A DNA stretch of 63,857 nt, counting the filler, from Phoronis australis (taxonomy: Eukaryota > Animalia > Phoronida), in the NCBI GenBank assembly GCA_002633005.1. It is 9 parts of 9 records of this genome, joined end to end, with 100 filler letters (N's around TTAATTAATTAA, not from the genome) between each part and the next. Parts side by side here need not be neighbours in the genome. Positions count along the whole stretch, not along the records: positions 1 to 27,124 come from NMRA01001273.1; 8 more parts are not named here. One strand, given 5' to 3'. This document shows, piece by piece, positions 4,905 through 56,378 of the stretch. The translations under genes and the position numbers were made by a program. The stretch's first letter is position 1. The number at the start of each line of letters is the position of its first letter. The notes beneath the pieces are model-generated. The model did not search any database and was not told the DNA's origin. It saw nothing but the letters and a program-made list of their open reading frames with translations.

Positions 4905-5313
4905 GCGGAGAAAATGTGGCCTTCATTAGCTGTGTTAAAGACGTCAGAAGTCATCTGAAGTCGTGCAAAGTGCCACAGAAGTTTGAAAGTATATCGGAAT
5001 TACAGCTGATTCTTGCCAGAGCTGGAGATAGGAGGTTGGACTGGCAAACCAATGGAAATGCGCCGTGATATATTTACACATCGACATGAGTTTGGACTTG
5101 GCTTTAAGACAACAATTGACGTGCTGTTATCCAGAACACACAGCATATTGTCAGAGGGATAAACCAGGAACAAGCAAAACAGGATCTGACGTCATCTCTC
5201 ACCTCACACCAAGTTTTGGTTGTAATGGATTTTGCAATGAAGTTCAAACCCATCAGTTTCCGTGAGGCACAACCCGACTGGTTTGGAAAAAAGGATCTCA
5301 TGGCATGTGGCGG
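4905..5313 (+). pseudogene. Decayed, internally deleted DDD/E transposase remnant, probably Sola-like
   Basis: Broken frames give SCVKDVRSHL..ELQLILARAG, HRHEFG, TCCYPEH and then VLVVMDFAMKFKPISFREAQPDWFGKK/ISWHVA. The last block is a motif I recognise from invertebrate transposase-like proteins. The superfamily is from memory and unverified. Confidence 0.45.
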
Positions 5314-6495
5314 TGTCGCGTGAAATTTCTTCCCCGTGAAATTTCTTCCCAAATGAAAACGGCAAAGCACAGCTGTAAAATAAGCCTAAAAATATAAATT
5401 CACTACGTGTGTGATAATGTAACGATTTTAGTCAATTGCCATTGTTATGTTAGACTATAGATTTACTTCAATTCAGTCGCCGGTCACTGGGCGGGCTTGC
5501 GCACGTATGGCCTATACTTTGCAGGTTGTGATCATGTTTTTGTTTGTTTTATTGTACTCTGTCAACTGTATTATGAGCTAATATTACTGATGTTAATAAA
5601 CCTGTCACCCTCTGTCTCGCTCTCTCTGTCTCTTTTTCTCTACTTGCGGGGCGGAATCCCGTTAGCTAGGTAGGATCGTGCCCCTGCACGACTGCCGTGG
5701 AGTGCATCCGGACCGGGGAGTCCTCTGTTGAAAGGCAAATTAGTAAAAAGCTCTTTCAAAAAGTGACATTCTGTAGACTCTATACTTAAAATTGATTCAT
5801 AAGATTAAAATATTTCTGAATTTCATTTCCTGGCCTGGGCGTCGCCTGACCTTAGGCCCGTCGCGGTGAAGACGCGACGCTCTTCGTCATCACTCCGATC
5901 TGAGTGTTCTTTTTCGCTTGTACTGAATTTCCTTCAAGAATATGTTAGAAAAGGCGTAAATTAGTATTGACTGAGGGAGACTGAGCAGCGCGAAATTGGT
6001 GACGACTGCGGACGGCGCTAAGCTGGTGACGACCAGAAGAAACGGTCCTGTTATCTTTCGCACAGATTATCAGAAACATGTCAGAAATACTCGAATGGGT
6101 AAAAATACTCGGTTGGGTATATTCCCAGTAAGGCATTATCATTTGTTATGATACGTAATAAGTTAAAATAATCGACGCCCACCTGTATGACCGAAGGCGA
6201 TGATCCCGGAGAAAATAGGTGTCCTGTGTGAAATAGTGTTCCTACATCATCAAACGCATCTTTCAGGAAAGTCTTACAAAAATGTACACTAAAAGAAAAC
6301 ACAGAAATTGGAAACCTTGTTTTTTCCAGGAAATTCGGTTCATGAGATTCGGAAAAAGGGAAATTTTCAAAATCGGTTTAGGAAAGCTCCAGCAAGCGAA
6401 ATAATTAGCGAGAATCAGGAAAAGTATTAAAAACTCCAAGATCATTTTACAAAATCAAACGCCGTGGGAAGGGACCATCACAGCTACAATGGGTA

Positions 6496-6640
6496 CAGTG
6501 GCGGATTTAGGATATCACGTACAAGGGGGGGGGGGCAACTTTTTGTCAGGCTGTAAGCATTTGCGCAAACTGAACCACGATTGTAGATGCGCATAGCACC
6601 GAAGTGGGGGACCCCTGGGCCCCCCCTAAATCCGCCTATG
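6496..6640. mobile_element. MITE nested in the Ginger element
   Basis: Ends cagtggcggatttag ... ctaaatccgcctatg, with gggta on both flanks. A related partial copy lies at 47987-48078. Confidence 0.65.
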
Positions 6641-7899
6641 GGGTAAAAATTGTAGTAGAATATTTACACTTCCTTGGTAAGGAAACTGAATTCGCAGATT
6701 AAAAATCTTTGAATGCGCCCTGAGCGCGTGGAGCGCTCCTAAAATGCCTGAGATCAATCCTTGATAAACAAGACTATTTTAGTCTGTTATATTCCATAGT
6801 GTTGTATATCAAGGAACTTGCAAATATATAGGTAGTAGGAATTACTTACTTCATGCGGGAACAAGACGAACGAGTATCCTGCTTGAATTGAAATAAGGTG
6901 CCTATCAAACCTTATAAAAAACAAAGTTATCTATCTTGAGAATTCGTAAAGACTAAAAATGTCGAAGAAAATTATTTCTTGACCAAAGAAATTGAAGGCC
7001 TTTGTATCTTTCGCAAAACATGAGAATTCAGTATCCTATTTTTAATTAAACGTTATTTCTTGACCAAAGAAATTGAAGGCCTTGGTATTTTTCGCAAAAC
7101 TTGAGAATTTAGTATCCTAATTTTAATTGAACGTTTTTGCAAAAAAGCTTGACTTTGTATTCTTGGTTGATCACGGATATTTCGTTTTCATACTTATTTT
7201 GCGGGAGACGTCTCCTGCTGGAAAATTGTCAGCCTACCTGTCTGATGTAAATCGCTAATAACATCAAACTGAAAATACTTCAACGTACCCAAATGTGATT
7301 TTACTCTGGCTGGCGCCAGAAAGACTGGAACTGACGCTTGTTTTTTCTTCATAAAACGAAAGCATAGGGACCTACTCTTTATTTATATGTGGGTGTGTGT
7401 GAGTGTATATTTAAACACTGCACTATTGTAGGCCCCTAAATTAGTAATATTCCATCGATTTTGGCTCAATATTCAATGTTGCCCACTTATTTATTTTCGG
7501 GTTATCAATCCAGTTTAAAGATGTCCTTCAAGGAATTATCTCAGTGCATTGTAAAGATAACTGATTTTTCTGAGTCCAGAATTCTTTGTAGGCCCATAAA
7601 GGAAATGGACCGTACCTAGAAATGTTGTGTGACATTATTCAAGTTAAAGAATTATTATCCCTCAATTTTCTGTGTGGAGGTTAAGTTGATTCACCAAAGA
7701 ATCCCAATAAAACTTTTTATTACCTATAAGTTTATTGGTTAGCAGTGAAACATGCTCAGGCAAGTTTTCATTTATTGAGAAGTCAGTAAATATTTTACAA
7801 GAAATTAGGTGTTCTATAACTTGATAAGATATGAAAGCCAAACATCTAGCATGAATGGGACCAAAGCTAGAATTTGTAAATATTTTTGTACAAACTTAG

Positions 7900-8345
7900 A
7901 CCAAAATCGCTTTCAAAATCTTCATTTTTAGAGCATATCATCATGTCTAATGAAAGTCTTGGAGACAAAAACACATGTTCCTTTACTTGATTACCTTAGA
8001 GAGCCAAAAGGCTAGCACCACTAGGGCCAATAATGAAATTCGCACAAATTTTACTATGTATTCAAACCAAAATCGCTTTCAAAATCTACAATTCTGGGAG
8101 CACATCTGCGAAAGTTGGTACAGTACATATTCATCATGTCTAATGAAAGTCTTGGAGACAAAAACACATGTTCCTTAACTTGGTTAACTGTGAGAAGCAA
8201 AAANCAGTACATATTCATCATGTCTAATGAAAGTCTTGGAGACAGAAACACATGTTCCTATACTTGATTACCTCTGAGAGTCAAAAGGCTAGCATGACTA
8301 GGGAAACTTGGTACAGTAGACATTCACCATGTCTAATGAAAGCCT
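7900..8345. repeat. Dispersed direct repeats (tcatcatgtctaatgaaagtcttggagacaaaaacacatgttcc, 3-4 copies)
   Basis: Unit seen at ~7938, 8131 and 8215, plus a partial copy at ~8323. An N at 8204 may mean one copy is an assembly overlap. Confidence 0.6.
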
Positions 8346-9094
8346 ACAACACCTAAAAACTATCATATCTAGGTTCCAATTGGAAAGCATCACAAGCGTG
8401 TGAGTCATCATGTTGATCAAGTCTTTGCCATACACCAACGCGGCTGGAAATGAAGACAAAAATAAGTTAAACATTACTCAAAAAACAAAAAATCACAATT
8501 TTTAGTAATGGTATCCCGATAGCTGTAATTTTTTAATATTTTTTATATTTCATTAAATATATATGTAGCAAACAGAATTTAATAAACCACAGAAATTTAA
8601 TTTCCTGATTCCTCAACAAACAACGACCAATCAAATATGACACATGACAATTAAGACCTCAAAACTTAAAAACATCTAAGGAAAGTTCAGAACTACCAAA
8701 TACTGCAAAGGCTATTGATCTTTTAGAAATGAGTGGTAGTTACACTCTCATTTATTTAATGTAAAGGAGAACAAGATAAAGTACAATACACAAAATAAAA
8801 TTAAAGGATGCAAAAGTATTTACCCCGCTGATGATGCCTGATGGGAGTTCCCACCACATAGAAAACAGAAGACTGACTTGAATGGGTTTATCCTAATAGC
8901 ACCACCAATCATATAATCCCTTCTAATGTCCCTGAAGATTTAGTACCACCAGTGGAGCTGTGAAGCAGATAAAAGAGAACTGTACCCCATGTCCAGAGGT
9001 GTCTGTAAATGCACTAAGTATTTCTTATGGTCACCCAACCATACGCAGGCACCACATGATTACAAAGCTGATAATTACCACCAAATCAACTGTG

Positions 9095-9160
9095 ATTGGA
9101 GGATGCTACTACATACAACTTGCGTATAAAAGGAGACAACTAAATCAAAACTCTTAGTTC
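9095..9160 (+). promoter_or_regulatory. Compact Pol II core promoter of the SGNH gene: reverse CCAAT, TATA box, Inr
   Basis: ATTGG at 9095-9099, TATAAAAG at 9125-9132 and Inr-like TTAGTT with its A at 9156 (TATA at -31). The ATG at 9164 is in the Kozak context CACCATG. Confidence 0.65.
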
Positions 9161-9163
9161 ACC

Positions 9164-9736
9164 ATGACCATGCCAACAAAAGTACTAGTGATCGGGAGTA
9201 GCTATATACGAAGGCTACAAGAGCACATCACTCATAACCACCTGAGCAACAGATTTCAATTAAGCGACGAGAGTCTCCACATCAAACTACATGGTAAAGG
9301 TGGTCTCACGTGTACCAAGCTACGGGCCAATGAACTGCATGTACTGCAATCTTACCAACCCCATGTGGCTGTACTCCATGTTGGTGGCAATGATTTGAGT
9401 AGTTTACCTGTGGAGACAGTGCTGTACGACATCCTAGCACTGTTGAGCCTCCTGCACCATCAGCATGGCGTCAAGGTTATTGTTGTCTGCTCAGTCCTGT
9501 ACAGATACAACATACCACATTTTACAGACAAGGCTGACGAGCTCAACCACAGATTAGAGACCACAGTGCGTGACCTCTCCTATGTCAAGTTTTGGAAACA
9601 CCAAAGATTCCAGAACAATATGAAGCTAGTACACCGGGATCGTGTGCACCTCAGCAAAGCAGGAAATGATCGTTTATACAGATCACTGAAGAGTGCCATA
9701 GTTCTTGGCTTGTCCAGTGTAAAGGGACTTCAGTGA
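9164..9736 (+). CDS. SGNH/GDSL hydrolase (esterase)-like protein, 190 aa, intronless
   Basis: Intact ORF with all four SGNH blocks: LVIGSSYIRRL (nucleophile Ser), GKGGLT, LHVGGNDL and DRVHLS (DxxH). Confidence 0.85.
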   Translation: MTMPTKVLVIGSSYIRRLQEHITHNHLSNRFQLSDESLHIKLHGKGGLTCTKLRANELHVLQSYQPHVAVLHVGGNDLSSLPVETVLYDILALLSLLHHQHGVKVIVVCSVLYRYNIPHFTDKADELNHRLETTVRDLSYVKFWKHQRFQNNMKLVHRDRVHLSKAGNDRLYRSLKSAIVLGLSSVKGLQ

Positions 9737-9751
9737 ATACTGAATTTAAAC

Positions 9752-9767
9752 AGCCCTTTTAAGGGCC
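9752..9767 (+). promoter_or_regulatory. Histone-mRNA-type 3' stem-loop after the SGNH ORF
   Basis: aaac-AGCCCTTTTAAGGGCC-acaa matches the canonical GGYYCTTTTNAGRRCC stem-loop at 15/16 positions, with typical A-rich and AC flanks. It starts 15 nt after the stop codon, and no AATAAA follows closely. Confidence 0.6.
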
Positions 9768-10619
9768 ACAATGTGTAAAATAATTGTTTTCTTTTTTCTT
9801 TGTTGTCATTAATCTTTTGGACTTTATATGCAAGATTTAATATAGATTCCAAACCAAAATTTGTGTTGTTTATGGGTTTGTATGCCCTATGAACTAATGT
9901 CTTCGTTCAAACGTCAATGTTACATCGGTCAAACAGTTTGCAGTCTTTCCCATCGGATATCTATCCATCTGCAAAATGGCGCCATTCAAGATCAGTTTCT
10001 GCAATGTCTGTCACAAATGTGAAATCACCAGTCAAGAAATTGTGGAAAACACGTCAATTCGTTACGTGGAGCACGATGTGGTGCAGTTGAGAGTATTAGA
10101 GTCCCTTTTAATTGCCATTTTGAATGAGCAGCGCAGCAAACAAGGTCGCGACGCACGTTACTTGAGAATGAAACAAGTATGTTTTGAAATATCGTGTGTC
10201 TTTTAATTAGGTCGCTAGGTCAGTTACTTTATCTATGTTCAGTTGAGAGTAGAGTAACTGAATAATGACTGTCAACAGTGAAAAATGTCGTGCGTTTAAC
10301 CAATTCTGATACATTTCACAAAACTTATCAGGGTTAAACTAATACCACACTTTCGGTTAAAGTTCTTGTTTTCACACTTGTTGCAGTTTCCATATGCAGT
10401 CAACCAAAAAATTTGAACTTTTTCAAATATAACTCTTAATGAGGGAGCCTCATTGTGGCAAGAGTTGGGCAGTGTTACAATGTAGAAACAGTTGTCTCGG
10501 GCAAACACTATCTGGTTTACTGGCATAATTTTTAAGAAAACTGAACACCTCTGCACTCTCACACCCATACCTCCCACGAAAATAACTATCTGATGACATG
10601 GGCACATTGGCTGACACAC

Positions 10620-10872
10620 CCAGACGATGTTCAAAAGAAACCTCACGTGAAAACAACATGTGTGTTTGTCCAGACGCATCGAGGAGTTGTTGCCTTTTTT
10701 CTGTAAAATGATCGTAATTTAACCATGAGATTTGATAGCAATGCAACACAGTTTTGTCGAAAACCTGTCATAGGTTACGAACATGTAAGAGAGTGTGAAT
10801 TTGATGAATCCTAGGTTCTAAGGTTACAATAAACGTCCCCTCCCCCCATGAAACGAATTTTTCTAAGTGCTC
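10620..10872 (-). repeat. Diverged, inverted fragment related to the CATG-family element
   Basis: The reverse complement contains cttagaaaaattcgtttcatggggggagggg, cctatgacaggttttcgacaaaactgtgttgcattgctatc and aacacacatgttgttttcacgtga. Each matches a block of 18505-18990 in the same order. Confidence 0.55.
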
Positions 10873-10890
10873 AGACATTTATGAGGGCGA

Positions 10891-11004
10891 ATAGAGCACT
10901 ACAAATAGAGCACTACAAATAGAGCACTACAAATAGAGCACTACAAATAGAGCACTACAAATAGAGCACTACAAATAGAGCACTACAAATAGAGCACTAC
11001 AAAT
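10891..11004. repeat. Perfect tandem repeat (ATAGAGCACTACAA)x8
   Basis: Eight identical 14-bp units counted directly. Confidence 0.95.
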
Positions 11005-11714
11005 GCCAGTGGCTAATGTGGTGGACCAGCAATAGCATACACACCACAGCCACAAGAGAAACTTAGTAAACCAGAAACACCACCAATACTATCGTAAAAA
11101 TCATAAAAACTGAGCAAGCAATTTAAACACAAGAAAATTGAATAACGCAACTTTGACCACATATTTATGAGAACATTAAAATGGAGGAACTGGTAAATAC
11201 AATGATAACCAACTTACCAAAGACAAGCTCATCAGCGTTAAAAAGGGTGCTGTTAATTTAATTTCGCTTTCACACTTAGCTACTTATACTAAAGACTGCA
11301 CAGTAAAATTAAGATGCAGCACAATTGTATAAGAGGCTGGGTGTTTTTTTTTAAGCTAAACATTAAATTGCTGTAAAAAATAGTGCATTACGTAAAGCCT
11401 GAAACAAAATCTCAATGTCATCACAATCAATTGAACATGGAACCCAGGCAGGATATTAGACAGGCGTAGCCCATCCATGAAAATTGAAAACGCAGTGTAT
11501 TTAGTGTCAGTTTGGTGGATCAAAAGGAATTATTTTCAGTTATCATGTTTACAAATCTCAGTACCAAAATACGTGTGTTCGGCATGAGAACAGTGTAATT
11601 GTAACAAAGACATAGGGAGGGTTGAAACGCTGCTAATATCCTGCAGACAATAAGAAACTTGATTTTTACAGATATGAAGTTTACCTGCAAAAAGATGGCT
11701 TAAGTATTAGTAAC

Positions 11715-12300
11715 ACATCCAACATCACAAGTATCTAATTTTTTTTTTTTTTTTGAAGCACTCTTTCTCCACAACCATACACCTCACATCACAAGTATCT
11801 AATTTTTTTGTTTTTTTTTGAAGCACTCTTTCTCCACAACCATACACCTCACATCACAAGTATCTAGTTTTTTTTGAAGCACTCTTTCTCACACAATCAC
11901 ATATCCAACATCACAAGTATCTAATTTTGTAAAGCTAAATAAAGCAGGAGGATTTGAAATTGGACTTGAAGGAAAACCAAAACGAAAACACCAAGACGGC
12001 AGCATACTTATTAAGCGTGCACAAGTAACTCCTATATGCACACCAAAATAAGTTAACATAAAATCCCAAAAATCTAAAAGTGAATCAAACACGAGGATTT
12101 GAAATTGGACTTGAAGAAAAACCAAAACGGAAACACCAAGACGGAAGCATACTTATATAAGCGTGCACAAGTAACTCCTATATGCACATAAATTCCCAAA
12201 AATCTAAAAGTGAATCAGACACGAAGATTTGAAATTGGACTTCAAGAAAACCAGAAATGAGAACACCAAGACGGCAGCATATGTGGACAAACTGTGAATC
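11715..12300. repeat. Tandem repeats downstream of the Ginger transposase stop (~60-bp and ~135-bp units)
   Basis: acatcacaagtatcta..gaagcactctttctc occurs 3-4 times. gatttgaaattggactt..acaccaagacgg occurs 3 times. Confidence 0.8.
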
Positions 12301-12317
12301 AAAACCGACAGTGAAAC

Positions 12318-15300
12318 TTACTGTTTGCATTGAGAGCATACCCAGGCCCGTCGCTCTTTGTCTGAGAGGTCTGTAAAGTGCACGCACTTGTCATGGAACC
12401 AATCTCCACAGGTTCCACACTCTATCATAGGCTGGTAATCATCTGGACGGCGGCACTCACAGAAGACCTTGACTTCACAGCTACGCCTCACGGTACGACG
12501 CCTTGCATTAGTGGTACAGGGGAATGTTGTTAACTTTTCCGACTGGAGACAGTCAGCTAGATGTTGTCTCAACCTTTTTGCATCTGCATACTCAAGAGCA
12601 GTAGGGTCATCCCCAGCTGCTAATGATGTAGCAAATGCAATGGCAAACACACCACAACTGCTACCATCCAGTTGTTGGCTAACATTCAAGACGTTCACCT
12701 TCACCTGGGCGTTGGGACTTCTTACAAGATCGCAGATGGGCACGAAATCATCTTCACGTGGTTTTCCACCAAAGCTGTCGTAGATGTTAACTGCACCTGG
12801 AGGAAGACCTATGTTGGAAATGGTAACCCAATGACTATTATGCACAAGGAGAATTTGAATAAACTCACCTTTAGGTATGACCCAAGACAAGTTTTGCTGG
12901 AGAACTGGGTTGACAAGACCATCAATTTGAGAATTCATTTGACGAATCAGTTTGGATGCATAACCAATTTCAGTGTCAGTCAGCCAAAATTTCTGGTCCC
13001 TGATCTTCTCGTAGTGGGCAGACCTAGAAAGTGAGGTAGACTCGCTCTTTTTCTTCCCCTGCTCAGCTACCTTAACAGCGCTATCGATTTTCCTCCGCTT
13101 AGATGGGTGGTCCACCTTGGATGGGCTGTCGGAATGACCAGGCTTTGGTGTGACTTGCACTTTTTGGGACGCCATGGAGTTGGACTGTTTAGGCTCAGAT
13201 TGAGGTTGATGTTGATCAGGCTTTGATGGTTTGTTGGCACCATCTTGGTCAGAGGTGTAGCCGTCACTGTCATGATCAGATGTTAAATCAATACATTCGG
13301 ACGTGGCGTTGGAACTACTTGCTGCAGAAGGGGTGCTAGCTGGATGTGAAGGGAAGCTAGTAGGAGGTGATGTGGTGCTGGGACGCCCTGACTCGGACGG
13401 CACACTGGTACTTTGCCTATCAGACGCAATGTTGAGACCAGTCGGCTTAGACAAATCACCTGTTAGGTAAGGCTTCATCTGGACGATAGGGACTTTCTTC
13501 TTAAGAGGATTCCCCTGGAGGTCAGCCAACGAAGCTGCACATTCGTTCAACCCAATGATGGTATAGGGACCTTTCCAGTCATCGTCCAGGCGCATGCCCT
13601 TTCGCCCCAGCTTCCTCATGTTCTTGGTGAGGACTTCCATACCTACAGCAAAATCAAAACACTTCACACCCTTACCTTTTTTCAAAGCATACTGCTTTTT
13701 TTGCCTCTCCTGAGCCTTGCCAATATTCTCATCAACTCGTAACTTCACTTGCTCCATAACCTTTATTCGAGCATCAACATCTTCATCAAGAATGTCCAAA
13801 GTGGGTACAGGAATAGTTTCAGGTTGTTCGCCATCACTTTCGTAGTGCGCAAGCTCTGAAAACAATCTGACTTTACGATTAAACATAAGGAAAAAGGGAG
13901 AGTATTGTGTAGTACTTTGAACAGCCGTGTTAATGGCAAACAGTGATGTTTCCAGATGTTCATCCCAGTCATTTCTACTCTCATTTGACTTCTTTTGGAG
14001 CATCTTTTTGAGGGTTTGGTTGGTTCGCTCATCCTGACCATTGGTTTGCGGGTGATAGGCCAAGGTCATTAGATGTTTCACCCTAAAAAGAGAGAACAAG
14101 TGGTCATTAACGTGGTTACAGAACTCCCTACCTTGATCGCTGAGTACTTTCTTAGGTGGTCCATATGTCAGAAAGTAGGTCGACAGTTTGGAACACACAC
14201 AAGCAGCAGACTTCTCTGGGATGGGGTAAGCAGCCACATACTTTGACCACAAGTCTGTAATAGTGAGCACATAACGATTACCCGATTTAGAACACACAAA
14301 AGGACCAATCAAATCTATACCGACCATTTCCATAGGCTCACTCGTTGTTATAGGCTTCAACTCTGGAGCGACCGTCAATACCTTAGCAGAGCGTTGGCAT
14401 GCATCGCACTCTGAAATCCACTGTAGAACGTCTGCTGTAATGCCAAGCCAATAGAACCTAGAAGAAATCCTACTTAAAGTGTTGTTAAAACCCATATGTC
14501 CACCAGTTTCACAATGACAGTCCAGAAAAATCCTCCTCTTTTCATCATCATCTAGCACGACATGCTTGAACGTGACGTCACCCAACTTGTCTTTAGATAT
14601 GTACTGCAGGAAACCGTTGTCATCTGAAAAAAAAGCACCACGCATTAAAGTGAGTCTGCAGATTTTAATTCTTGTAATGAAGATGTCCAGCAGCAGTTTC
14701 TAATTCATTCCATTTCTTACCAAAACCTCTAATAGGATTGCTTATATTGATGAATTTCGTCTGTGCACATGGTCGTTGATGGAGATGGAAGTGTCTGGAA
14801 AATATACAGCAAGAACACAGTGACTGCTCAGGTTTCATAAGGTCAGCCATAGCTGGATTATACGGTTTTTGATATATGGGCATATGGAGTTATGTTTTGA
14901 GACAAGCAGTAACATACAGTACCATTAAAATAGTAAACATAAATACGTAGATAATGAAACAAGTCAATATTTTAGAATGAGTAGTAATGTTAGATACTGA
15001 ATTATTGAGAAATATACCAGATAAATTGATTACGAAACTTTGCTTTTCAAATGCATCTACTTAAATGGTAGAAGTCAAATCATGTTTTTTATCTGTGTCT
15101 GCATACTGTGAAGTTCACACCACACTGTGCTTTGTGTTTGTAAAATATAAGGAAGTTTGCAACCAATATAATAAAGCATCAAACAGGTTAAAAATTCAAA
15201 CAGTGGTGGGAAAATTCTGTGGTACACAGTGAAAAACAGCAGGAGCTTAAGTTGCATAGGGAGCTAATGTAAACAACCACACCTGGTATGAACACAGCAG

Positions 15301-17146
15301 CTGCTCCTAATAGTACTTAGGTGTTATAAACCCTGTGGTTTTCTCAACAGTCAGCCTGAACAGACAATAAGCAGAAGTTCACCAAGTTGAGTATAGCTTA
15401 CAACCAAAAGGGATTAAGTGCCCACCCCTTACCTGCCCAGCAGGTATCACCACTGAACAGGGGGGGTTCAAAGGGAAATTTGATGGGCTTTAAAAAGGTG
15501 GGAAGCCATACAGTAGAGAATACTTTTAAGCAATTGACTAATTTCTTAGGACAAATCCCTTAGCTGCCCAGCAGGTATTACCACTTTAATTTTAGGCAAT
15601 TGTCTAAGACCATCATGAATACATGGGTATTAAAGGATGTTTTTAGGGCTTCACAAAGGTGGGAAGCCATACAGTACACCATACCCTAGGACAATTCACT
15701 GATGACTTGGGCATGGGAATAGAAACATTGCAAAATGGAAGAATTACTAAACATCACTTTCGATATTTTATGGATTTATAAAAACTGATCTTTGACTTTA
15801 ATCTCAACTACATGAAGATTGGCTAATACTTGAAGTCTTTTCAAAAAACCAGCCATACAATGTGATAGCTGACAAACATAACTCAAAAATGGTTTAAGTT
15901 GGAAATATTGTGAGAAGTGGCTGAAGTATATGACATGTATTGGCATTTATTGGGAAAATGACTGAGTGACATTTTTGAAAGTCTTGTTCACCCAATATAT
16001 AATTATGGCCGATGCATTAACATGCATTTTCATGTCCATTGATTAAGTTTCTCGAAGCTACCGAAGACTCGTAAAATAGGTAGCTTGATGTTCAAACTAA
16101 GGTACTATGACAAACGCTCATGATATTGTATCTCAGAAGACTTTCAAGTAAAACTTTAAGTAATGTACGCTTTATGCACTATTTTCAAGAGACACTAAAG
16201 GTATGCATGTGGGGCTATAAGAAAGAATGATTTTTTGATTTGGATGAAAGGAAACCTAGAAATTGCATTAATGTAAACGAAGCAATAATTTTGAAAACTG
16301 ATAGGCCTATGATTTTTGCAATTTTGTCTTGAACATTTAAGTCGATGAATACACGGTTGCGTGAGTCAGTTAAAAGCACACATGGATACAAACTAAAATG
16401 AATTTGTATTGACTTTCTACTGTTAGAATTGGGAAATATATTCTTTTTCCATGCACAAGGTCAGAGTGGGAAGAAATTTCACGGGGAAAAAAATTTTACT
16501 AACCCCAGAGAATAGTACACGGTTTGACAGTAAACGAATGACATGATAACCTCGCTTAACAGCAACAAATTTAACACAAATTTATTGTTGCAAATTAATG
16601 TAACCAAAGCAATAATTTAGAAAATTGGTAACATGATTTTTGCGATTTTATCTTGAACACTTATGTCGTTGAATACAGTTAATAGGCCTAACAGACAAGG
16701 ATACAAGCTAAAATCAAATTCTGTTGACTTAACGTTAGAATTGGGAAATATATTCTTTTTCCATGCGCAAGGTCGGAGTGTGAAAAATTTCGCGGGGAAG
16801 AAATTTTACTAATAGGCCTACTACTAGAGACTAGAGTGCTGGAAATATTGGCTAACCCCAGAGACTAGTACAGAGCACTTGACATGACATGACATGACAT
16901 CCTCGCTTAACAATAAAAAAATAATACAAATTTATTGCTCCAAATGTAAGCCTAACAGACTTCAAGTAAAAGTTTTAAAATCAGAGTCACTAATAATTGA
17001 AGTATCAGTTTAGTCCACTTACCTAACCGAAAGCACTTGGCATAACTTCGAAAACCCCTGCGCTGATTGATCGTCAAAGTCAACGGAAGGGATCCATCCT
17101 CCAAAAACTTCTTCACATCACTCTCACTATACTTGCGATCACGCAT
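12318..17146 (-). CDS. Ginger1 transposase, two exons (17146-17023 and 14623-12318), 809 aa: integrase zinc-binding, DDE core, GPY/F, Ulp1-like Cys protease, PHD finger
   Basis: Exon 1 MRDRKY..AKCFRL ends at G|GTAAGT (phase 1) and joins ttttttttcag|AT in frame, giving 2430 nt. Motifs: H..H..C..C zinc site, DDE triad (GIDLIGP / SDQGREF / NGQDERTN), WKGPY, protease H-D-Q-C (SHWVT, YDSF, QQLDGSSCGVFAIAFA) and a C4HC3 PHD. No internal stops. Confidence 0.9.
16270..16930. repeat. ~330-bp imperfect duplication in the transposase intron; each unit carries a TIR-like motif
   Basis: ttagaattgggaaatatattctttttccatgc.caaggtc occurs twice. gggaagaaatttcacggggaa is at ~16468 and aaatttcgcggggaagaaattt at ~16785. 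Confidence 0.75.
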
Positions 17147-17411
17147 CTTTGCAAAAAAAACGTCTGGAATATTCGTGTACGTAGCAGATAGCGACTCAAC
17201 TGTCTTACTGTAGTGTAGCGAATGGCCCTGGGAAGAAATTTCACGCTCATCTTATGCTCTCAGCACCGGAAGCCACTTTGGCCAATGTGCGCATGCGCAA
17301 GGCCAGATTGGGAAGAAATTTCACGGGGAAGAAATTTCACGCGACACCGGCTGGGATCCCCCTATCCCCAGGTTAATTACGGTGGCGTTACGGCGGCGCC
17401 GCCCATGGCAC

Positions 17412-18233: not shown

Positions 18234-19724
18234 CATGTCGTGAACACATCCACTAAAACAAGAAACTGTAGGAACACCGCATTTATCCACCTTCACTCTT
18301 ATCAGGCTTCTATTGTGAGTCAGCATGCGTGAATAATTGGGTGATAAGTCACCTCTGGAACTACTTTGGGCTGAATGGATGACCAGGCCATAAAATGATA
18401 ATTAGCCAAGACCAGTTACTATAATGCAACAAAGAACAAGTAATAATGTCTTGCATCACCTAGCCTTGGTGGAAAGCTGTATACTGTATTGGCTCAAACA
18501 AACGCTTAGAAAAATTCATTTCACGGGGAGGGGACGCTTATTGTAGTGAGCCTACGGCAGTTGAAACCCGGTTTCCCAAACGGGTAAAATCGGAAGCTAG
18601 GATTCATCAAATTTACGCTCTGTGACGTATTTGTAGCCTATGACAGCCTTTCTACAAAATTGTGGTGCATTGCTATCAACTTCCGTTGTTAAATTACGAT
18701 AATTTTTCAAAAAATTGTGCTCATCACAGGGCGAAAACTTGCCGACTGATGCGTCGCTGAATCGCGATCGTCAATAGGAAAACTTGTACTCTTGAATAAA
18801 AATATAGTTTCGACTCAACAAATTACCTGAAATCTTCCTGATGTTTTACAATTTTTAAAGTTCCTGTGGAGTCCAGATTAATTGCGATTAAGTCCAAATG
18901 TGCGCTACATCGTACTCCACAACACGAGAAAAATCTCTGGATGAACACACATGTTGTTGTCACGTGACGTTTGTTTTGAAGGTCGTCTGCGTATGAGAGT
19001 GAGTGAGCGTGCGTGTGCGGGTCATCGACGATAGACTTTTTTGTTACAAAAGGCGGAGGATTATGCAAGAAAATGGCGTTTACTAGATTGTTTTTCACTT
19101 AAACGGCTGTAACGTGCAAGGTGAGTGCGCTCGCAGAGTCACATCTCGGAAGTTTCCGGTTTGACGGATGACAAAGAACGATCTCAATGAAATTACACAA
19201 AGTCGTTTTAGAGCTTGTAATAGCTATACAAAACGTATTTTGAGTATTAAAATGCATTTTTTCCAAAACCTAAATAACACACGGAGTAGTTCTACATTTA
19301 TACAATCCTAACTTGGGTCCTATATTTTTGTATTCGTGCGCGCCGAATGAAAGTAATCGTGAGTGTTTCTGTGTTGCAAAATCTCTTATCCTGGGTCGAT
19401 TTGAAAAATTCAAAGTTGTATTCGTATTTGTTTTCGCTCCTCTTTTCAAATATTACAGTTAAAACTACGTAAAATTCTCTCCATAAAAAGTACAGTTGTT
19501 AGGCTAGACTGTAATCAGCTGATCATATCCGCATGAGCGAAGGCAATTATCCTCGCTCGTGACTCGATGAATAGAGCAGCTTGGCGGCATCCCTTTGAGC
19601 ATGAGCCGAGCGCGTCTCAGCCAAGGTGGATAAATACGGTCTAGTTCAATTTTCCATACCCCGCCGTTTACCTTAAACACCGGGGTTAGAACCAATTTTA
19701 TTTAGTGGGAATGTTCATAGCATG
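18234..19724 (+). mobile_element. CATG-family non-autonomous TIR element, copy 2 (both ends present)
   Basis: CATG...CATG termini with an 18/24 inverted match and GT on both flanks (possible 2-bp TSD). It lacks the ~2070-2545 segment of copy 1. Confidence 0.75.
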
Positions 19725-24594: not shown

Positions 24595-25540
24595 CATGTG
24601 GTGAACACATCCATTAGCACAATTAGAAACTGTAGGGACACTGCATTTATCCACCTTCACTCTTATCAGGCTTCTATCGTGAGTCAGCATGCGTGAATAA
24701 TTGGCTGATAAGCCACCTCTAGAACTACTTTTGGCTGAATGGATGACCAGGCCATAAAATGATAATTAGCCAAGACCAGTTTTATACTAATGCAACAAAG
24801 AATAATGTTGTAGCATCACCTAGCCTTGGTGGAAAGCTGTATATTGTATTGGCTCTAATAAACGCTTAGAAAAATTCATTTCACGGGGGATTCTTATTGT
24901 AGCCTACGGCAGTTGAAAGCCGGTTTCCCGGTAAAATCGGAAGCTCTAAGGATTCATAAAATTTACGCTCTGTGACGTATTTTTAGCCTATGACAGTCTT
25001 TCTACAAAATTGTGGTGCATTGCTTTGAACTTCCGTTGTTATATTACAATAATTTTTTAAAAAATTGTGCTCATCACAGGGCGAAAACTTGCCGACTGCG
25101 TCCCTGAATCGCCATCGTCAATAAGAAAACTTGAACTCTTGAACAAAAATATAGTTTCGACTCAACAAATTACCTGTAATCTTCGATGTTCTACAATTTT
25201 TAAAGTTCATGTGGAGTTCAGGTTAATTGCGATTAAGTGCAAATCTGCGCTACATCGTACCCTACAACACGAGAAAAATCTCTGGATGAACACACATGTT
25301 GTTGTCACGTGACGTTTGTTTTGAAGTTCGTCTGCGTATGAGAGTGAGTGCCGGAGCGTGCGTGTGTGGGTCATCGACGATAGACTTTTTTGTTACAAAA
25401 GGCGGAGGATTATGCAGGAAAATGGCGTTTACTAGATTGTTTTTTCATTTAAACGGCTGCAACGTGCAAGGTGAGTGCTGGTTAACTCCAGATTTTGTGT
25501 GCACAGGCCGACGGTCGTTAGCTCTACCGTGGAGTATTAT
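24595..25540 (+). mobile_element. CATG-family element, copy 3 (3'-truncated)
   Basis: Colinear with copies 1 and 2 up to ccgtggagtatta, then unrelated sequence. Confidence 0.75.
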
Positions 25541-35561: not shown

Positions 35562-37375
35562 TCACAGTCGCGTCGAACAGGTTTCTCCGTTTCCTAACGA
35601 GCTTGTTGACTTGGAAGCAGATTTTGATGAAAATGTTTGGTTAGACAGGCCAGTTGTTTTTCCTAATCCTAATGCATTCAAGACGCGACGTGTACAAACA
35701 AACGCGACAAAGATGAATAAGCCTTGGGTCGCATTCAGCACTGTAAAAATATACCAGACAACCTCATTGTTTGCTGCCATGGCAATGAATCCGAAAATCC
35801 ACGTCATTCCTAAGAGGATGAACAATTTCAAATACACTTTGAACTCTAACTTTGTAGAAATTTTTTTGGAGCTTGCAATATTCTTGGATATTTNACAGGG
35901 CCAAGCCCTTTGGATGAAAATAGCGATTTCACGAGAGATGTCAAGTTTTCGTACATCGTTGCTTTATGTTTTTTCTGTGAAAGGCAGTTGTTTTTGTTTA
36001 TTCGCTGCATGAACGTTATGTCCAGAAGAATCTGATTGGTTGAGTAATTACTTCCAAATAAGTGATTTTCCACGCTTAGTTTGAAGCTGGGTTTCGAGTT
36101 TATGTCAAACAACTTCTCCAGGCCTTTCACAATAAAGGGCATGGTTCCCCTCGTAAATCTTTTACTTCCTATTTCCGTATCGACGCCGTTGCCGTGAGAT
36201 GGAATATACTGTATGTTTATTTGCACGGACGATAGTGCATAGTGAGGAACACACTCTCCGTTTTGCAAGATATAGTCTTTTTGACAGCTTGAAAACCTGC
36301 ATTCCGTGAGATTAATCGAATCACACTCGGCTATGGAGGCGGTGCTGTCTTTTGTTCTCAAACCTAAAGATTCGGACAAATCGACATGAATTTTTCCAAT
36401 ATTATTCACATCAAGAAGTAGTGAGAATGAAAATTTCCACAGGATAGGTTTAGACGGCTTTGGAATAACAGAGTGTTCTGGCGACGCTGTGGCACTGCAA
36501 GTCATGCCAGCTACGTTTTGCGGGTCATTGCAAAGTGCACAGTAGTAATTTTTGTAGTATCTTTCATTAATCTTCACGAACAATGATGGCGAAGATCGAC
36601 AGAGTTTTACCAACTCATTTGACTTGCAGCCACGAGGACAATCACGGACAACTTTTGAATGACAGTAACGGTATGAGCCGTCTGGATCTTCCATGGTCAA
36701 ATTGCAAAGAGGGTCATTCAAGCGATGCAGAAATTCTTTAAGACTGCTTTCAGTAGCACTTTCAGACTTTTCATAACACGTGAGATTAAATTTCCAAAAC
36801 AGCACATTCTTAACTCCGTGGCACTGAGCACAAAAGAGATTTCTGTATTGTATTCCGGTTACATTGTCTCTCACTGGAATTCTGCTCACCACAGATTCGT
36901 CAGTGTTCAAACAAGCTCTAGCAATCTTGTCATCTTGGAAGTCATTTGGGCAGTTGTTCACCATGAGTGTAGAGTAAATCTTTGAAGAGGTTACCACTTC
37001 AAAGCATTCCGTTGGAATAACGTCTTTCGCACGATCTGGACAATTGGTCAAGAAATCTAGACAACAATCGCCATACCCGATGCACAAAGAGTCACATGAG
37101 CACAATGGAATGCGGTGTGATGGTGCACCTGGTTTAAACGGTTTTGCTCCTTTTTTAGATCCTTTTCCACCTGGTTGTTGAACAGCTGAGCCGCATAAAT
37201 CAGCCCGACATGTAAGAAACGGCAAATCTTTCAAACATTTTGTTGTCCGAGAAGTATAATGTTCAACATCATAAGCAGTTTTGTTGCCGCAACCATATAA
37301 TGAGGGAAGTTCCGGTTTTATCCAAACAAACACACTAGCTAAAATAACACATTGAAGTAGGAATGGCGTGCACAT
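35562..37375 (-). CDS. SMB-domain, Cys-rich secretin/adhesion(Methuselah)-like GPCR; TM1-5 region missing at N35894
   Basis: Signal-like MCTPFLLQCVILASVF, SMB-like CSCDSLCIGYGDCCLDF and two YxNxxCAxC repeats. After the N a different frame gives TM6-7 (LKLFILLGMTWIFGF..WYIFTVLNATQGLFIFVAF), which is the family-B signature. Confidence 0.75.
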
Positions 37376-39248
37376 CTCGACTAGGTTTTCTGTAAACTGC
37401 GTGCAGTTAGTCTTCGTCTTGTCTCCTATCCCTGTAAGAAAAATTAAAAAGCAGTGTGCGTATGGAATAAATAGGCCAACGTCTGTTCTGACAATATGTA
37501 GATTTTCACCCATTACGTCCATTGTCATCCATTACCTACAAGTCCATGTTAAACCATTGTATCTGGTTTGAGCCATTAGTACATTCTAACCCGTTATGGC
37601 TGTTTGACAAATTGGGTCTTTTTTGACCAATTATTTCATGCTTTATTCTAATGTCCATTTTCGAACTACATCCATATAAACTAATGGCTATGAATTCCGA
37701 TTTTATCAACTATGATGAAATGGACGTAATGGGCGTCGGTTGAACCCATTACACGTCCACTTAACCATTATCCTCATATTGACTGTTTTGACCCAATATC
37801 TCCAAATTGACTTCTTAATTTTGCAGTGTGAAGCTTGGTCCAGAACACTAACGACATGTCGGTTGTTTCCAAGCATGAATGTATCAGTAATCTAAGCAAA
37901 GAGCAAGGTGAGACCAGGAGTGACTAACTCAGAGCCACCCTAGGTTAAGGCTCACCGTAACTGAAGAGTTCTTTGTTAGAATTACTTGTAAACGATTGTC
38001 ATAAATAGTAAAGAGTNNNNNNNNNNNNNNNNNNNNNNNNNNNNNNNNNNNNNNNNNNNNTTAATTAATTAANNNNNNNNNNNNNNNNNNNNNNNNNNNN
38101 NNNNNNNNNNNNNNNNCAAGCATTGAAAACATTTAAATGATGCAAACACCTGTAAGGGTGAGATGGAACGGGGAAATTTAATTTTATGTCTTTGATAAGA
38201 GAAAGGAGTTTTAAATAACACCAAACTGTATTGACTTGCTCCAATGGAACTGGCAAATTGGTAACAGTTAGCAGATCATGAGAAAAAAAGACAGGAATTA
38301 AATAAAAAATCATTGTGTTAGCAATGATGTAAAAGTAACCAAACAATGGGAATTCTCAAAGAACCAAAACAAACATATTGAACTACTGAGTTGCTTCAAA
38401 CGTTTCACAATGTTAATACACCATCAAACACAGACATAATGTTAATTATCTCCAACTGATTGGGCCACATTATTTTCTCCACACTGTAAAGATTATTAAG
38501 CTTCATTTCTTTGTTCTAAAGTTTGTTTGCAAACAAGTAGTTCAAAGAATTCCTACACAATCTCCCAAAACATATCATCAGTGCCTTTCCACTCTTATTT
38601 TACATCTAACAGAAACTACTAAAATCTCACCAAAATAATTGGCAAAAATTCCCTTATTTGACCTTTCCTGGCCTTCTAACATCTTTGCGAATGCCCACAA
38701 TAATTCAAAACTTTGTCTGGTGGTAGTGGTACAAAACTTGAGGATGGAAATGCATTTAATTTTGTGCTACACATGTAGCATAGAAAGAAATGATGAATTA
38801 AAATACCACTAGTTGGTCATATTGTGCCCTCTATTGGACATTTTACCAAATACACATCTAGCCATGCTGTACAAAGTATTATGGCATACAATATACAACA
38901 CCAATTCAACTACCAGTCACTAGTATTTACATCATTTTTACACCACTATGCATTACTTGCTGAAAAGTAACAATCAATGCAGTGTTATTTTGCCATTACA
39001 CAGTTAAGAATATCCAGTGACGCCTCGTGTAACGGCCACTGCAAGTCCTTTTCTATAAATAATAAATTTATCAACAAGTCCCATTTAAAGTCATAATTGA
39101 AGTTACAAATACTGTCAACAATGTCGCCTTTTGTCTGCCACTTGAAACAAGGTAAAATTTCAAATCACCGTATGTACACTACTCCATACTCCGTATCCAA
39201 CAAACCACAGTTAGACTTTCTTGTCTCGTCTCTTTAGTAATCAAGGCG

Positions 39249-43417
<4,169 letters not shown>

Positions 43418-54727: not shown

Positions 54728-56378
54728 TCATGGCTTCGGTCCAAATGGCATACTCGGCTGGCCAGTTAGCACTGTAAAAAGATAGCAAACAAATGTCTAA
54801 AGACAAGCACGAGTGAATAGTTTCCACTTGCACAAGCTGTAATTAGTATAAGCTTCTTGACACGGCATCCAAGTTTTGAGGTGCGGCCATAAACCGACTG
54901 GTATAATTCACTTACAGAGGTCCCGCATTTTGAGAACCAGTTTTCTCCACTGAACAACAGGTACCAAACTGGTTCTCAAACCTGGGGCCCTGCTAAACTA
55001 TTGCCAAAATATCTTCCATAAGAAAAAAACTTTTGATTTATACTCAAGATTACGAAACCGCCTCAAATAGGTCTTTAGCCAAAATAGATGTGATTTCTGG
55101 GCTTTGAAAGATAGCTTATTATTTAGATAGTTAATTATTTGAGACTAGACTCTCCAATTAGAAGGGGGAACTATATTTTGCCCAATCACTTTTGCCATGC
55201 AGCAATTATTTTACAAACAAAATAAGTACGTAGTCCACATCAAGTGGTTCAAAGGTAATGCCTACTGCAGAACACAAAATGCTTTACAATCAAGTTAGTA
55301 CTTACTGTAGGGGTCAGCGTAGAGGGGATAGGCCACGTGAGTATGATGATGAGTATGTAGATGGCGCTGAGCAGGTGGAGATGATGAATCCCGCCGTTTC
55401 TCAAATGGCGATCCCGTCGAGCTATCTGTAGTCGACGACGATGACTTCTCCCCAGTCGATGTTACTGGAGATTTAGCCTGCTCTTTGAGTTCATGAATCT
55501 TGTGCTGACCGGCTGGTGAGAAGTAGGTGGGGTCAAGTGACTTAGCACCGGCCAGCATGGCCGTGGCCTTATCCTTTTCCGCTTCCATTGGCGACACGTG
55601 ATAGCGCATCTGACTGGGATGAATGTAGCCAGCGGGGTTGTATCCCATGAGTGTTGGCGCACGATACATAGGATGACCAACGTCAAAGGGCGTATAGTGG
55701 TAAGGGTTGGCAGCTGCAAAAACAGGGAATGCCGCCGCTGGCGACTGTTGACTAGCTATGCTCTGCATGCCGGGTGGGCTCCGTGCACTCTTGGGTGTGT
55801 CCGCGCGCGACACAGGCTTTCCCGCCAGTGGAGTCGCCGACTTCTGCCTATCCTGGCGTTTCACTGGATCTGGCGATGACTTGTCCGATCTCGCTTCTTC
55901 CCTTCGCAGCTTATTGGGACTGGCCCGTGGGCTCCGTTCATGTGCTATGCTGCCGAGCGTGGCGGACGCGCTCACTTTGGGCTTGCTGTCGTCGATGGGC
56001 TTCAACTCGGGAACATTCCGTGGTGCACTGCCACCGGCACCATCGGGTCGAGATGGTTGTTTGCTGGAGTCATGCACCTTCTTCTGTTCTAGCATCTGCT
56101 GCCGCTGGAACATGTAGAATCTCTGAAGGTCTTCCTCCTGTTTCTTCACCAACTGGGCGGTGTCGTACGGATCCATCGGCTTGGACAGGCGGCTAGTGGC
56201 AACACTCGCCGCCGACTCCACCTGGGCCTTAAGCTCTATGTTCTCCCGCATAATCTGATGGCTCTCGCGTAATTTGTCCTGCATGCTGCGCTCCGTCCTA
56301 TTGCGCTCTAACGAGGACGGCTGTGACGTTGGCGTTTTGTCGCTGCTGGTTTTACGGCCATCATCGGAACAAGTAGGT
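54728..56378 (-). CDS. ZNF608/609: ZNF608/ZNF609/scribbler (brakeless) family, last two coding exons (56378-55306 and 54771-54728)
   Basis: The C-terminal hallmark PPAQRHLHTHHHTHV.YPL..DPY is present, plus QIMRENIELK and KIHELKE. Acceptor tttcag|A (56378), donor A|GTAAGT (55306), and the last exon MLTGQPSMPFGPKP* is phase-compatible. Confidence 0.85.

Follow-up and report, generated by a model that had tools for sequence, protein, structure and literature searches.

Replication-dependent histone mRNAs are described as the sole known mRNAs without a poly(A) tail in the accessible parts of two papers (PMC4604434, PMC10388802), one of which, using human SLBP CLIP, reports in those parts no true non-histone target (PMC4604434). 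In metazoans, the genes for these mRNAs are intronless, with a short leader, a TATA/CCAAT promoter and no near poly(A) signal, and shortly past the stop codon they carry a 16-nt hairpin flanked by A/C-rich sequence. The G2-C15 pair and the loop U3 have been called diagnostic of the histone hairpin (10.64898/2026.10.14.759114). [quoted passage not shown] The gene described here lies in a 63,857-nt stretch of Phoronis australis DNA (nine parts joined with filler; hereafter, the window) and shares all of these gene and hairpin features with histone genes, but it encodes an esterase and resides in a DNA transposon, and its hairpin has a broken first pair, scores 26.2 bits and is followed by no HDE recognizable with a histone profile. 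The distance from stop to hairpin also differs: 15 nt here, versus a median of 30 nt in histones (10.64898/2026.10.14.759114) and 21-54 nt in the histone ends from our scans of prokaryote assemblies.

The closest described carrier is Ginger1 (Bao et al. 2010, PMC2836005), with which the element shares TGT...ACA terminal inverted repeats (TIRs), a CCGG-type 4-bp target (CCGG or CCGT in that paper), and a Gypsy-integrase-like transposase with H2C2, DDE, GPY, Ulp1 and PHD parts and a GT-AG intron, predicted in the window copy. It is longer, however, at 12.0 kb versus 2.6-7 kb, its 39-bp TIRs stand at the short end of the Ginger1 range (~40-270 bp), and it holds a second, convergent gene, the SGNH gene, whereas the accessible text of PMC2836005 makes no mention of SGNH, esterase or a second ORF.

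SGNH enzymes in mobile DNA have precedents. The ORF1p esterase of CR1/L2/RTEX elements, a retrotransposon relative that hydrolyses esters and binds lipids, has the fold, the catalytic residues and the mobile-element carrier in common with the window protein, but ORF1p esterases are fused, whereas the window protein stands alone (190 aa) in a cut-and-paste element (PMC3905857); the match of the two proteins is weak (E 0.2 to 4c1b). SGNH cargo is also known in Helitrons: texim shares the same three traits but has introns, unlike the intronless window gene in its cut-and-paste element, and the accessible text of the texim paper does not mention histone (PMC4021074). The open-licence literature, at the level of titles and abstract openings, gave neither a transposon gene with a histone stem-loop end nor data on the first base pair of the hairpin; older subscription papers and supplements may have something on either question.

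A Ginger1 element with an SGNH gene

The SGNH gene lies inside a 12,033-bp element (5314-17346) bounded by identical 39-bp TIRs, with the following features.

5310..5313, no strand: left target-site copy GCGG (3/4 matches to right CCGG)
5314..5352, + strand: left terminal inverted repeat, 39 bp, begins TGTCG
9095..9099, + strand: inverted CCAAT box (ATTGG), -61 from the putative start; read from sequence, function presumed
9125..9132, + strand: TATA box TATAAAAG, -31, read from sequence
9154..9159, + strand: initiator-like TTAGTT (within CTTAGTT), putative +1 at A 9156, 8-nt leader; read from sequence
9164..9736, + strand: SGNH hydrolase ORF, 190 aa, intronless, with S13, N76, D159 and H162
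9863..10255, no strand: nested high-copy repeat between SGNH gene and transposase, from depth and loose ends
12318..14623, - strand: Ginger1 transposase exon 2 (H2C2 zinc finger, rve, GPY, Ulp1, PHD), from Pfam and frame
17023..17146, - strand: predicted Ginger1 transposase exon 1, with a putative GT-AG intron
17308..17346, - strand: right 39-bp terminal inverted repeat, a perfect match to the left one
17347..17350, no strand: right target-site copy CCGG

The element is a Ginger1 DNA transposon: its TIRs start with TGT, its 4-bp target is of CCGG type (3/4), and its transposase has the domain set of the group. Pfam recovers Integrase_H2C2, rve, Peptidase_C48 and PHD, and the GPY segment can be read in the ORF. 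The predicted splice joins the 41 codons of exon 1 to exon 2 in an open 809-aa frame; exon 1 fills the place where, ahead of the zinc finger, a YPYY motif is expected, and has no clear motif and no Pfam match. The sequence at 5120-5313, into which the element is inserted, is a putative decayed, transposase-like fragment of a different element.

Given the nested repeats that separate it from the transposase, the SGNH gene may be either transposon cargo or a later insertion; we presume it to be regular Ginger1 family cargo. The element also contains a perfect 14-bp tandem repeat of ~8 copies (10890-11004). A dispersed repeat family occurs at 1434-1555, 10602-10867, 18505-19008 and 25281-25340, one copy being nested in the Ginger1 element, and further repeats of 57-146 bp are present in the window at 7917-8360, 11715-12281 and 16267-16945. 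Outside the element, the window holds a YY1 first coding exon (42540-43097, - strand; 64-68% identical to molluscan YY1 among the top matches listed, which points to a mollusc-like lophotrochozoan host), a somatomedin-B ORF with an N-broken end (35846-37528, - strand), and a long exon (55295-56284, - strand) without a Pfam match, presumably ZNF608/609-like. A tRNA search of the window found none.

The SGNH frame (9164-9736) is free of internal stops over 190 aa, matches Lipase_GDSL_2 above the cut-off (E 7e-8), and is predicted to fold with high confidence (pLDDT 93.9), with a TM score of ~0.7 against solved GDSL/SGNH enzymes. Together, the S, G, N and D-x-x-H blocks and the flavodoxin-like predicted fold place the product among SGNH hydrolases, with presumed esterase activity; a PDB sequence search gave weak matches only. 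Animal SGNH proteins of 190-200 aa, of which the window protein is one, form a widespread family with members in cnidarians, molluscs, chordates and annelids. The combined TATA, initiator and CCAAT layout is found at 2 of the 69 TATA boxes of the whole window, and the CpG o/e ratio in the ORF is 0.43. The sequence-only reading had proposed an intact, intronless, transposon-borne SGNH gene with ATTGG, TATAAAAG and an initiator at promoter spacing; the open frame, the Pfam match and the predicted fold agree with it, the spacing of -61 and -31 holds for the putative start, and the carrier proves to be a Ginger1 element with 39-bp TIRs and an intact transposase after predicted splicing.

The hairpin behind the stop codon

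Two further features follow the SGNH stop codon.

9752..9767, + strand: histone-type stem-loop AGCCCTTTTAAGGGCC, first pair broken (A.C), from Rfam score and pattern match
9776..9790, + strand: zone expected for an HDE, with a short A-rich run and no profile match (p 0.72 and 0.45)

The hairpin begins 15 nt past the stop, between TAAAC and ACAAT, as had been read from the sequence. Its G2-C15 pair, loop U1 and U3, A-rich 5' flank and AC 3' flank are in place. Scoring with Rfam Histone3 (RF00032), offered with the original proposal as its first check, gave 26.2 bits against a gathering score of 34, which at the level of the score goes against the proposal; no match in the window reaches the gathering score. 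The E-value is 1.9e-5 when 301 nt are searched and 0.004 for the whole window, and the score lies below every match listed in a 19-locus comparison (28.9-43.4 bits). A pattern allowing one mismatch matches the window once, and 6 of 100 window shuffles also give one match; by itself, the motif is only mildly unusual. The chance that such a hairpin falls at most 60 nt from any one stop is ~2e-5. No second hairpin was found elsewhere in the Ginger1 element, including behind the transposase.

The A at 9752 is found again in the DNA contigs of two runs, X1 and X2 (9689-9845, 0 differences), and is, therefore, not an assembly error. Among 14 matches of this A1 variant, none stands behind a histone. 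Decay of the first G in a CpG context, as suggested from the sequence, is plausible: the homologue L004, described below, has C-G at that place, and CpG is depleted in the ORF. Opening of the first pair by CpG mutation is likely.

Two absences noted earlier recur in the analysis. The first AATAAA downstream is at 10828, and a profile of nine histone ends from outside this genome finds no HDE behind the hairpin (p 0.72), although 3 of the 9 true histone ends also fail it in leave-one-out comparison. With the bottom pair open and no HDE recognized, cleavage at this copy is probably poor or lost.

Other copies, homologues and unrelated genes with the hairpin

The hairpin region exists in three or more versions among the contigs of one DNA sample: that of the window, one with a 10-nt deletion behind the hairpin, and a third in which a canonical UUUC loop goes with a ~14-nt deletion; for the latter two, the comparison covers the hairpin from its second base. 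Further SGNH versions in the same animal have a 2-nt ORF deletion, a truncation or an inversion. These indels and rearrangements would fit decay.

A paralogue, ~80% identical in DNA where the two can be aligned, has reads in all three RNA runs, of which 18-19% each was read, and is thus expressed. Its reads nearly all have one orientation (25/25 at 9343 in X6), and coverage tapers towards the ATG, which suggests sense mRNA. A hairpin, expected in homologous copies under the original proposal, is absent from the 28 nt visible past its stop, and 18 reads continue there (median 60 nt). Its 3' letters resemble a collapsed hairpin and HDE, a resemblance given no weight. Five reads of a near-identical copy span the hairpin in X6, in the orientation opposite to the paralogue reads, and no pile-up of RNA ends was found there. 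As the reads may be of either library strand and may come from poly(A) libraries, from which a tail-less mRNA would drop out, they neither show nor exclude a histone-type end.

Scanning metagenomes with an alignment of 13 proteins yielded 11 loci. Searches for SGNH relatives in viral contigs returned none, and those in prokaryote genomes returned two bacterial SGNH proteins only. Five loci were counted as standalone animal-type homologues with DNA (L001, L002, L003, L004, L007); outside this count are L005, L006, L008 and L009 (long, ORF1-like) and L010-L013 (bacterial, numbered to include the two from prokaryote genomes), none of which has the hairpin. Within it, L004 (MOXG01001895.1), 26% identical to the window protein and retrieved by protein alone, has a perfect hairpin 26 nt past its stop, which passes the Rfam cut-off of 34 with 35.7 bits. 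An HDE-like stretch lies at the usual distance behind it (p 0.03), and upstream there are four ATTGG boxes and no TATA. The probability of an exact hairpin behind any of five stops by chance is ~3e-6, and when the DNA of L004 is compared with the 64-kb window, the hairpin is the best and sole notable match (19/21 nt). The sequence-only reading had looked to homologues for a conserved hairpin amid diverged DNA: L004 bears this out, including G1, but the other four of the five lack the hairpin. A long MITE-like palindrome lies directly behind the SGNH homologue of L003 (747-938).

In the protein tree, L004 sits on a long branch, and the sister of the window protein lies elsewhere, hairpin-less genes being closer to it than L004; a single inherited clade of hairpin-bearing SGNH genes is, therefore, unsupported, and the two hairpins may have been gained independently or may have outlasted many losses.

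Perfect-hairpin scans of prokaryote assemblies returned 57 and 36 stretches and caught animal-type contaminant contigs, with ~21 distinct histone ends serving as positive control. Contaminant contigs with animal histone clusters or other DNA of animal type are present in several GTDB representative assemblies, and bacterial DNA gives many chance matches to the same patterns. After histones, duplicates and bacterial-looking matches had been removed by eye, which was a post hoc choice, 13 hairpins were left. Nine of these hand-picked hairpins lie 8-40 nt past an ATG ORF of at least 65 aa, versus 3-6% of random positions. The other four (L050, L110, L114, L115) have animal-type flanks and perfect stem-loops with no ORF in front, so that loose hairpins without a gene do exist.

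The clearest case is a DDE_Tnp_4 transposase (L113:250-1219, CAMQSH010000319.1), whose frame appears to follow an intron, with a perfect stem-loop 27 nt past the stop (41.9 bits), an A-rich run downstream and a convergent BESS ORF. We take its domain set to be Harbinger-type, and the label Helitron-type, used below, is likewise presumed from domain sets. Perfect stem-loops 8-25 nt past the stop also follow a PIF1 helicase (L035), two MADF genes (L031, L043), an orphan (L070) and a RING gene (L077), the last standing head to head with a kinase-like ORF; HDEs are clear in L031 and L070 (p <=0.001). The nine include small orphans (L038, twice; L045; L070). In L038 (715-2291, CBDHEM010000070.1), small orphan ORFs are arranged in tandem beside a zinc-knuckle ORF, and two of the orphans are each followed by a perfect stem-loop and by a motif common to both; L045 holds a related Cys-rich ORF with a stem-loop, and L038 looks like a virus-like or mobile element. 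Exclusivity of the signal to histones, which the original proposal had called into question, would be challenged by the mobile-element genes that carry it in full. A hairpin scan of viral contigs gave nine matches, none behind a histone or SGNH gene; as histone-type ends these were rejected and read as chance or terminators.

Competing explanations and significance

The reading we prefer, at a probability of about 0.5, is that of a Ginger1-borne esterase gene with a borrowed histone mRNA end that is decaying in this copy. By a strict test the window hairpin falls outside the histone-end class, while intact relatives would work like a histone end. The compact CCAAT-TATA-initiator promoter would yield a short transcript, SLBP would bind its hairpin, and U7 snRNP would cut ~5 nt behind it; export, translation and breakdown of the tail-less mRNA would then follow the timing of histone mRNAs, and the enzyme might thereby appear in dividing or germ-line cells, in which a transposition event is passed on. 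The working form would be that of L004 and the other mobile-element genes, with the window copy as the decaying one.

A neighbouring reading would have the end still functional, with SLBP tolerating the open pair and U7 recognizing a lineage-specific A-rich run, or with SLBP acting without U7 cleavage. Retention of G2-C15, the loop U3 said to be diagnostic (10.64898/2026.10.14.759114) and the A-rich flanks speaks for it, as do the intact ORF, promoter, transposase and TIRs; an absent HDE would count for less, given the true histone ends (3/9) that fail the profile and the bivalve histone genes partly without a found HDE (PMC6210712). We nevertheless hold it to be unlikely, as the score is under all matches listed in the 19-locus comparison, none of the 14 A1 matches stands behind a histone, and indels pile up directly behind the hairpin among the versions. 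More doubtful is a passive scrap of histone origin: an orphon end, or a repeat carrying the hairpin, would have been deposited behind the gene and have no role, the gene being polyadenylated downstream or silent. The patchy presence of the hairpin in carriers that are not sister, the 4 of 13 hairpins without an ORF, the hairpin-free 28 nt of the expressed paralogue and the AATAAA at 10828 would all fit, but random landing does not predict the strong excess of hairpins 8-40 nt past stops, and L004 and the window have no histone UTR or repeat similarity in common beyond the hairpin.

Coincidence beside an ordinary transposon-borne esterase gene is very improbable. The shuffles (6/100), the sub-threshold Rfam score and the many random matches in bacterial DNA keep it in view; the position behind the stop (~2e-5), the right flanks and the matching promoter layout argue against it. 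On sequence grounds, the hairpins of the window and L004 are hardly due to chance, since a perfect one occurs independently in the same protein family.

The window locus itself is a weak example of the preferred reading; L004 and L113 are better test cases, and interest attaches to the class rather than to this copy. We put at even odds the broader proposal that the mobile elements of aquatic animals (Ginger1, Harbinger-type, Helitron-type, virus-like) widely and repeatedly co-opt SLBP/U7 for non-polyadenylated, replication- or germline-timed transposase, helicase and esterase mRNAs, in which case histone mRNAs would not be the sole tail-less class and the others would be hidden from poly(A) RNA-seq. 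If this is true, transposon genes with a histone end would break the histone-only rule for tail-less mRNAs, poly(A)-based transcriptomes would miss such genes, and mobile DNA would gain ready-made expression during DNA replication or in eggs.
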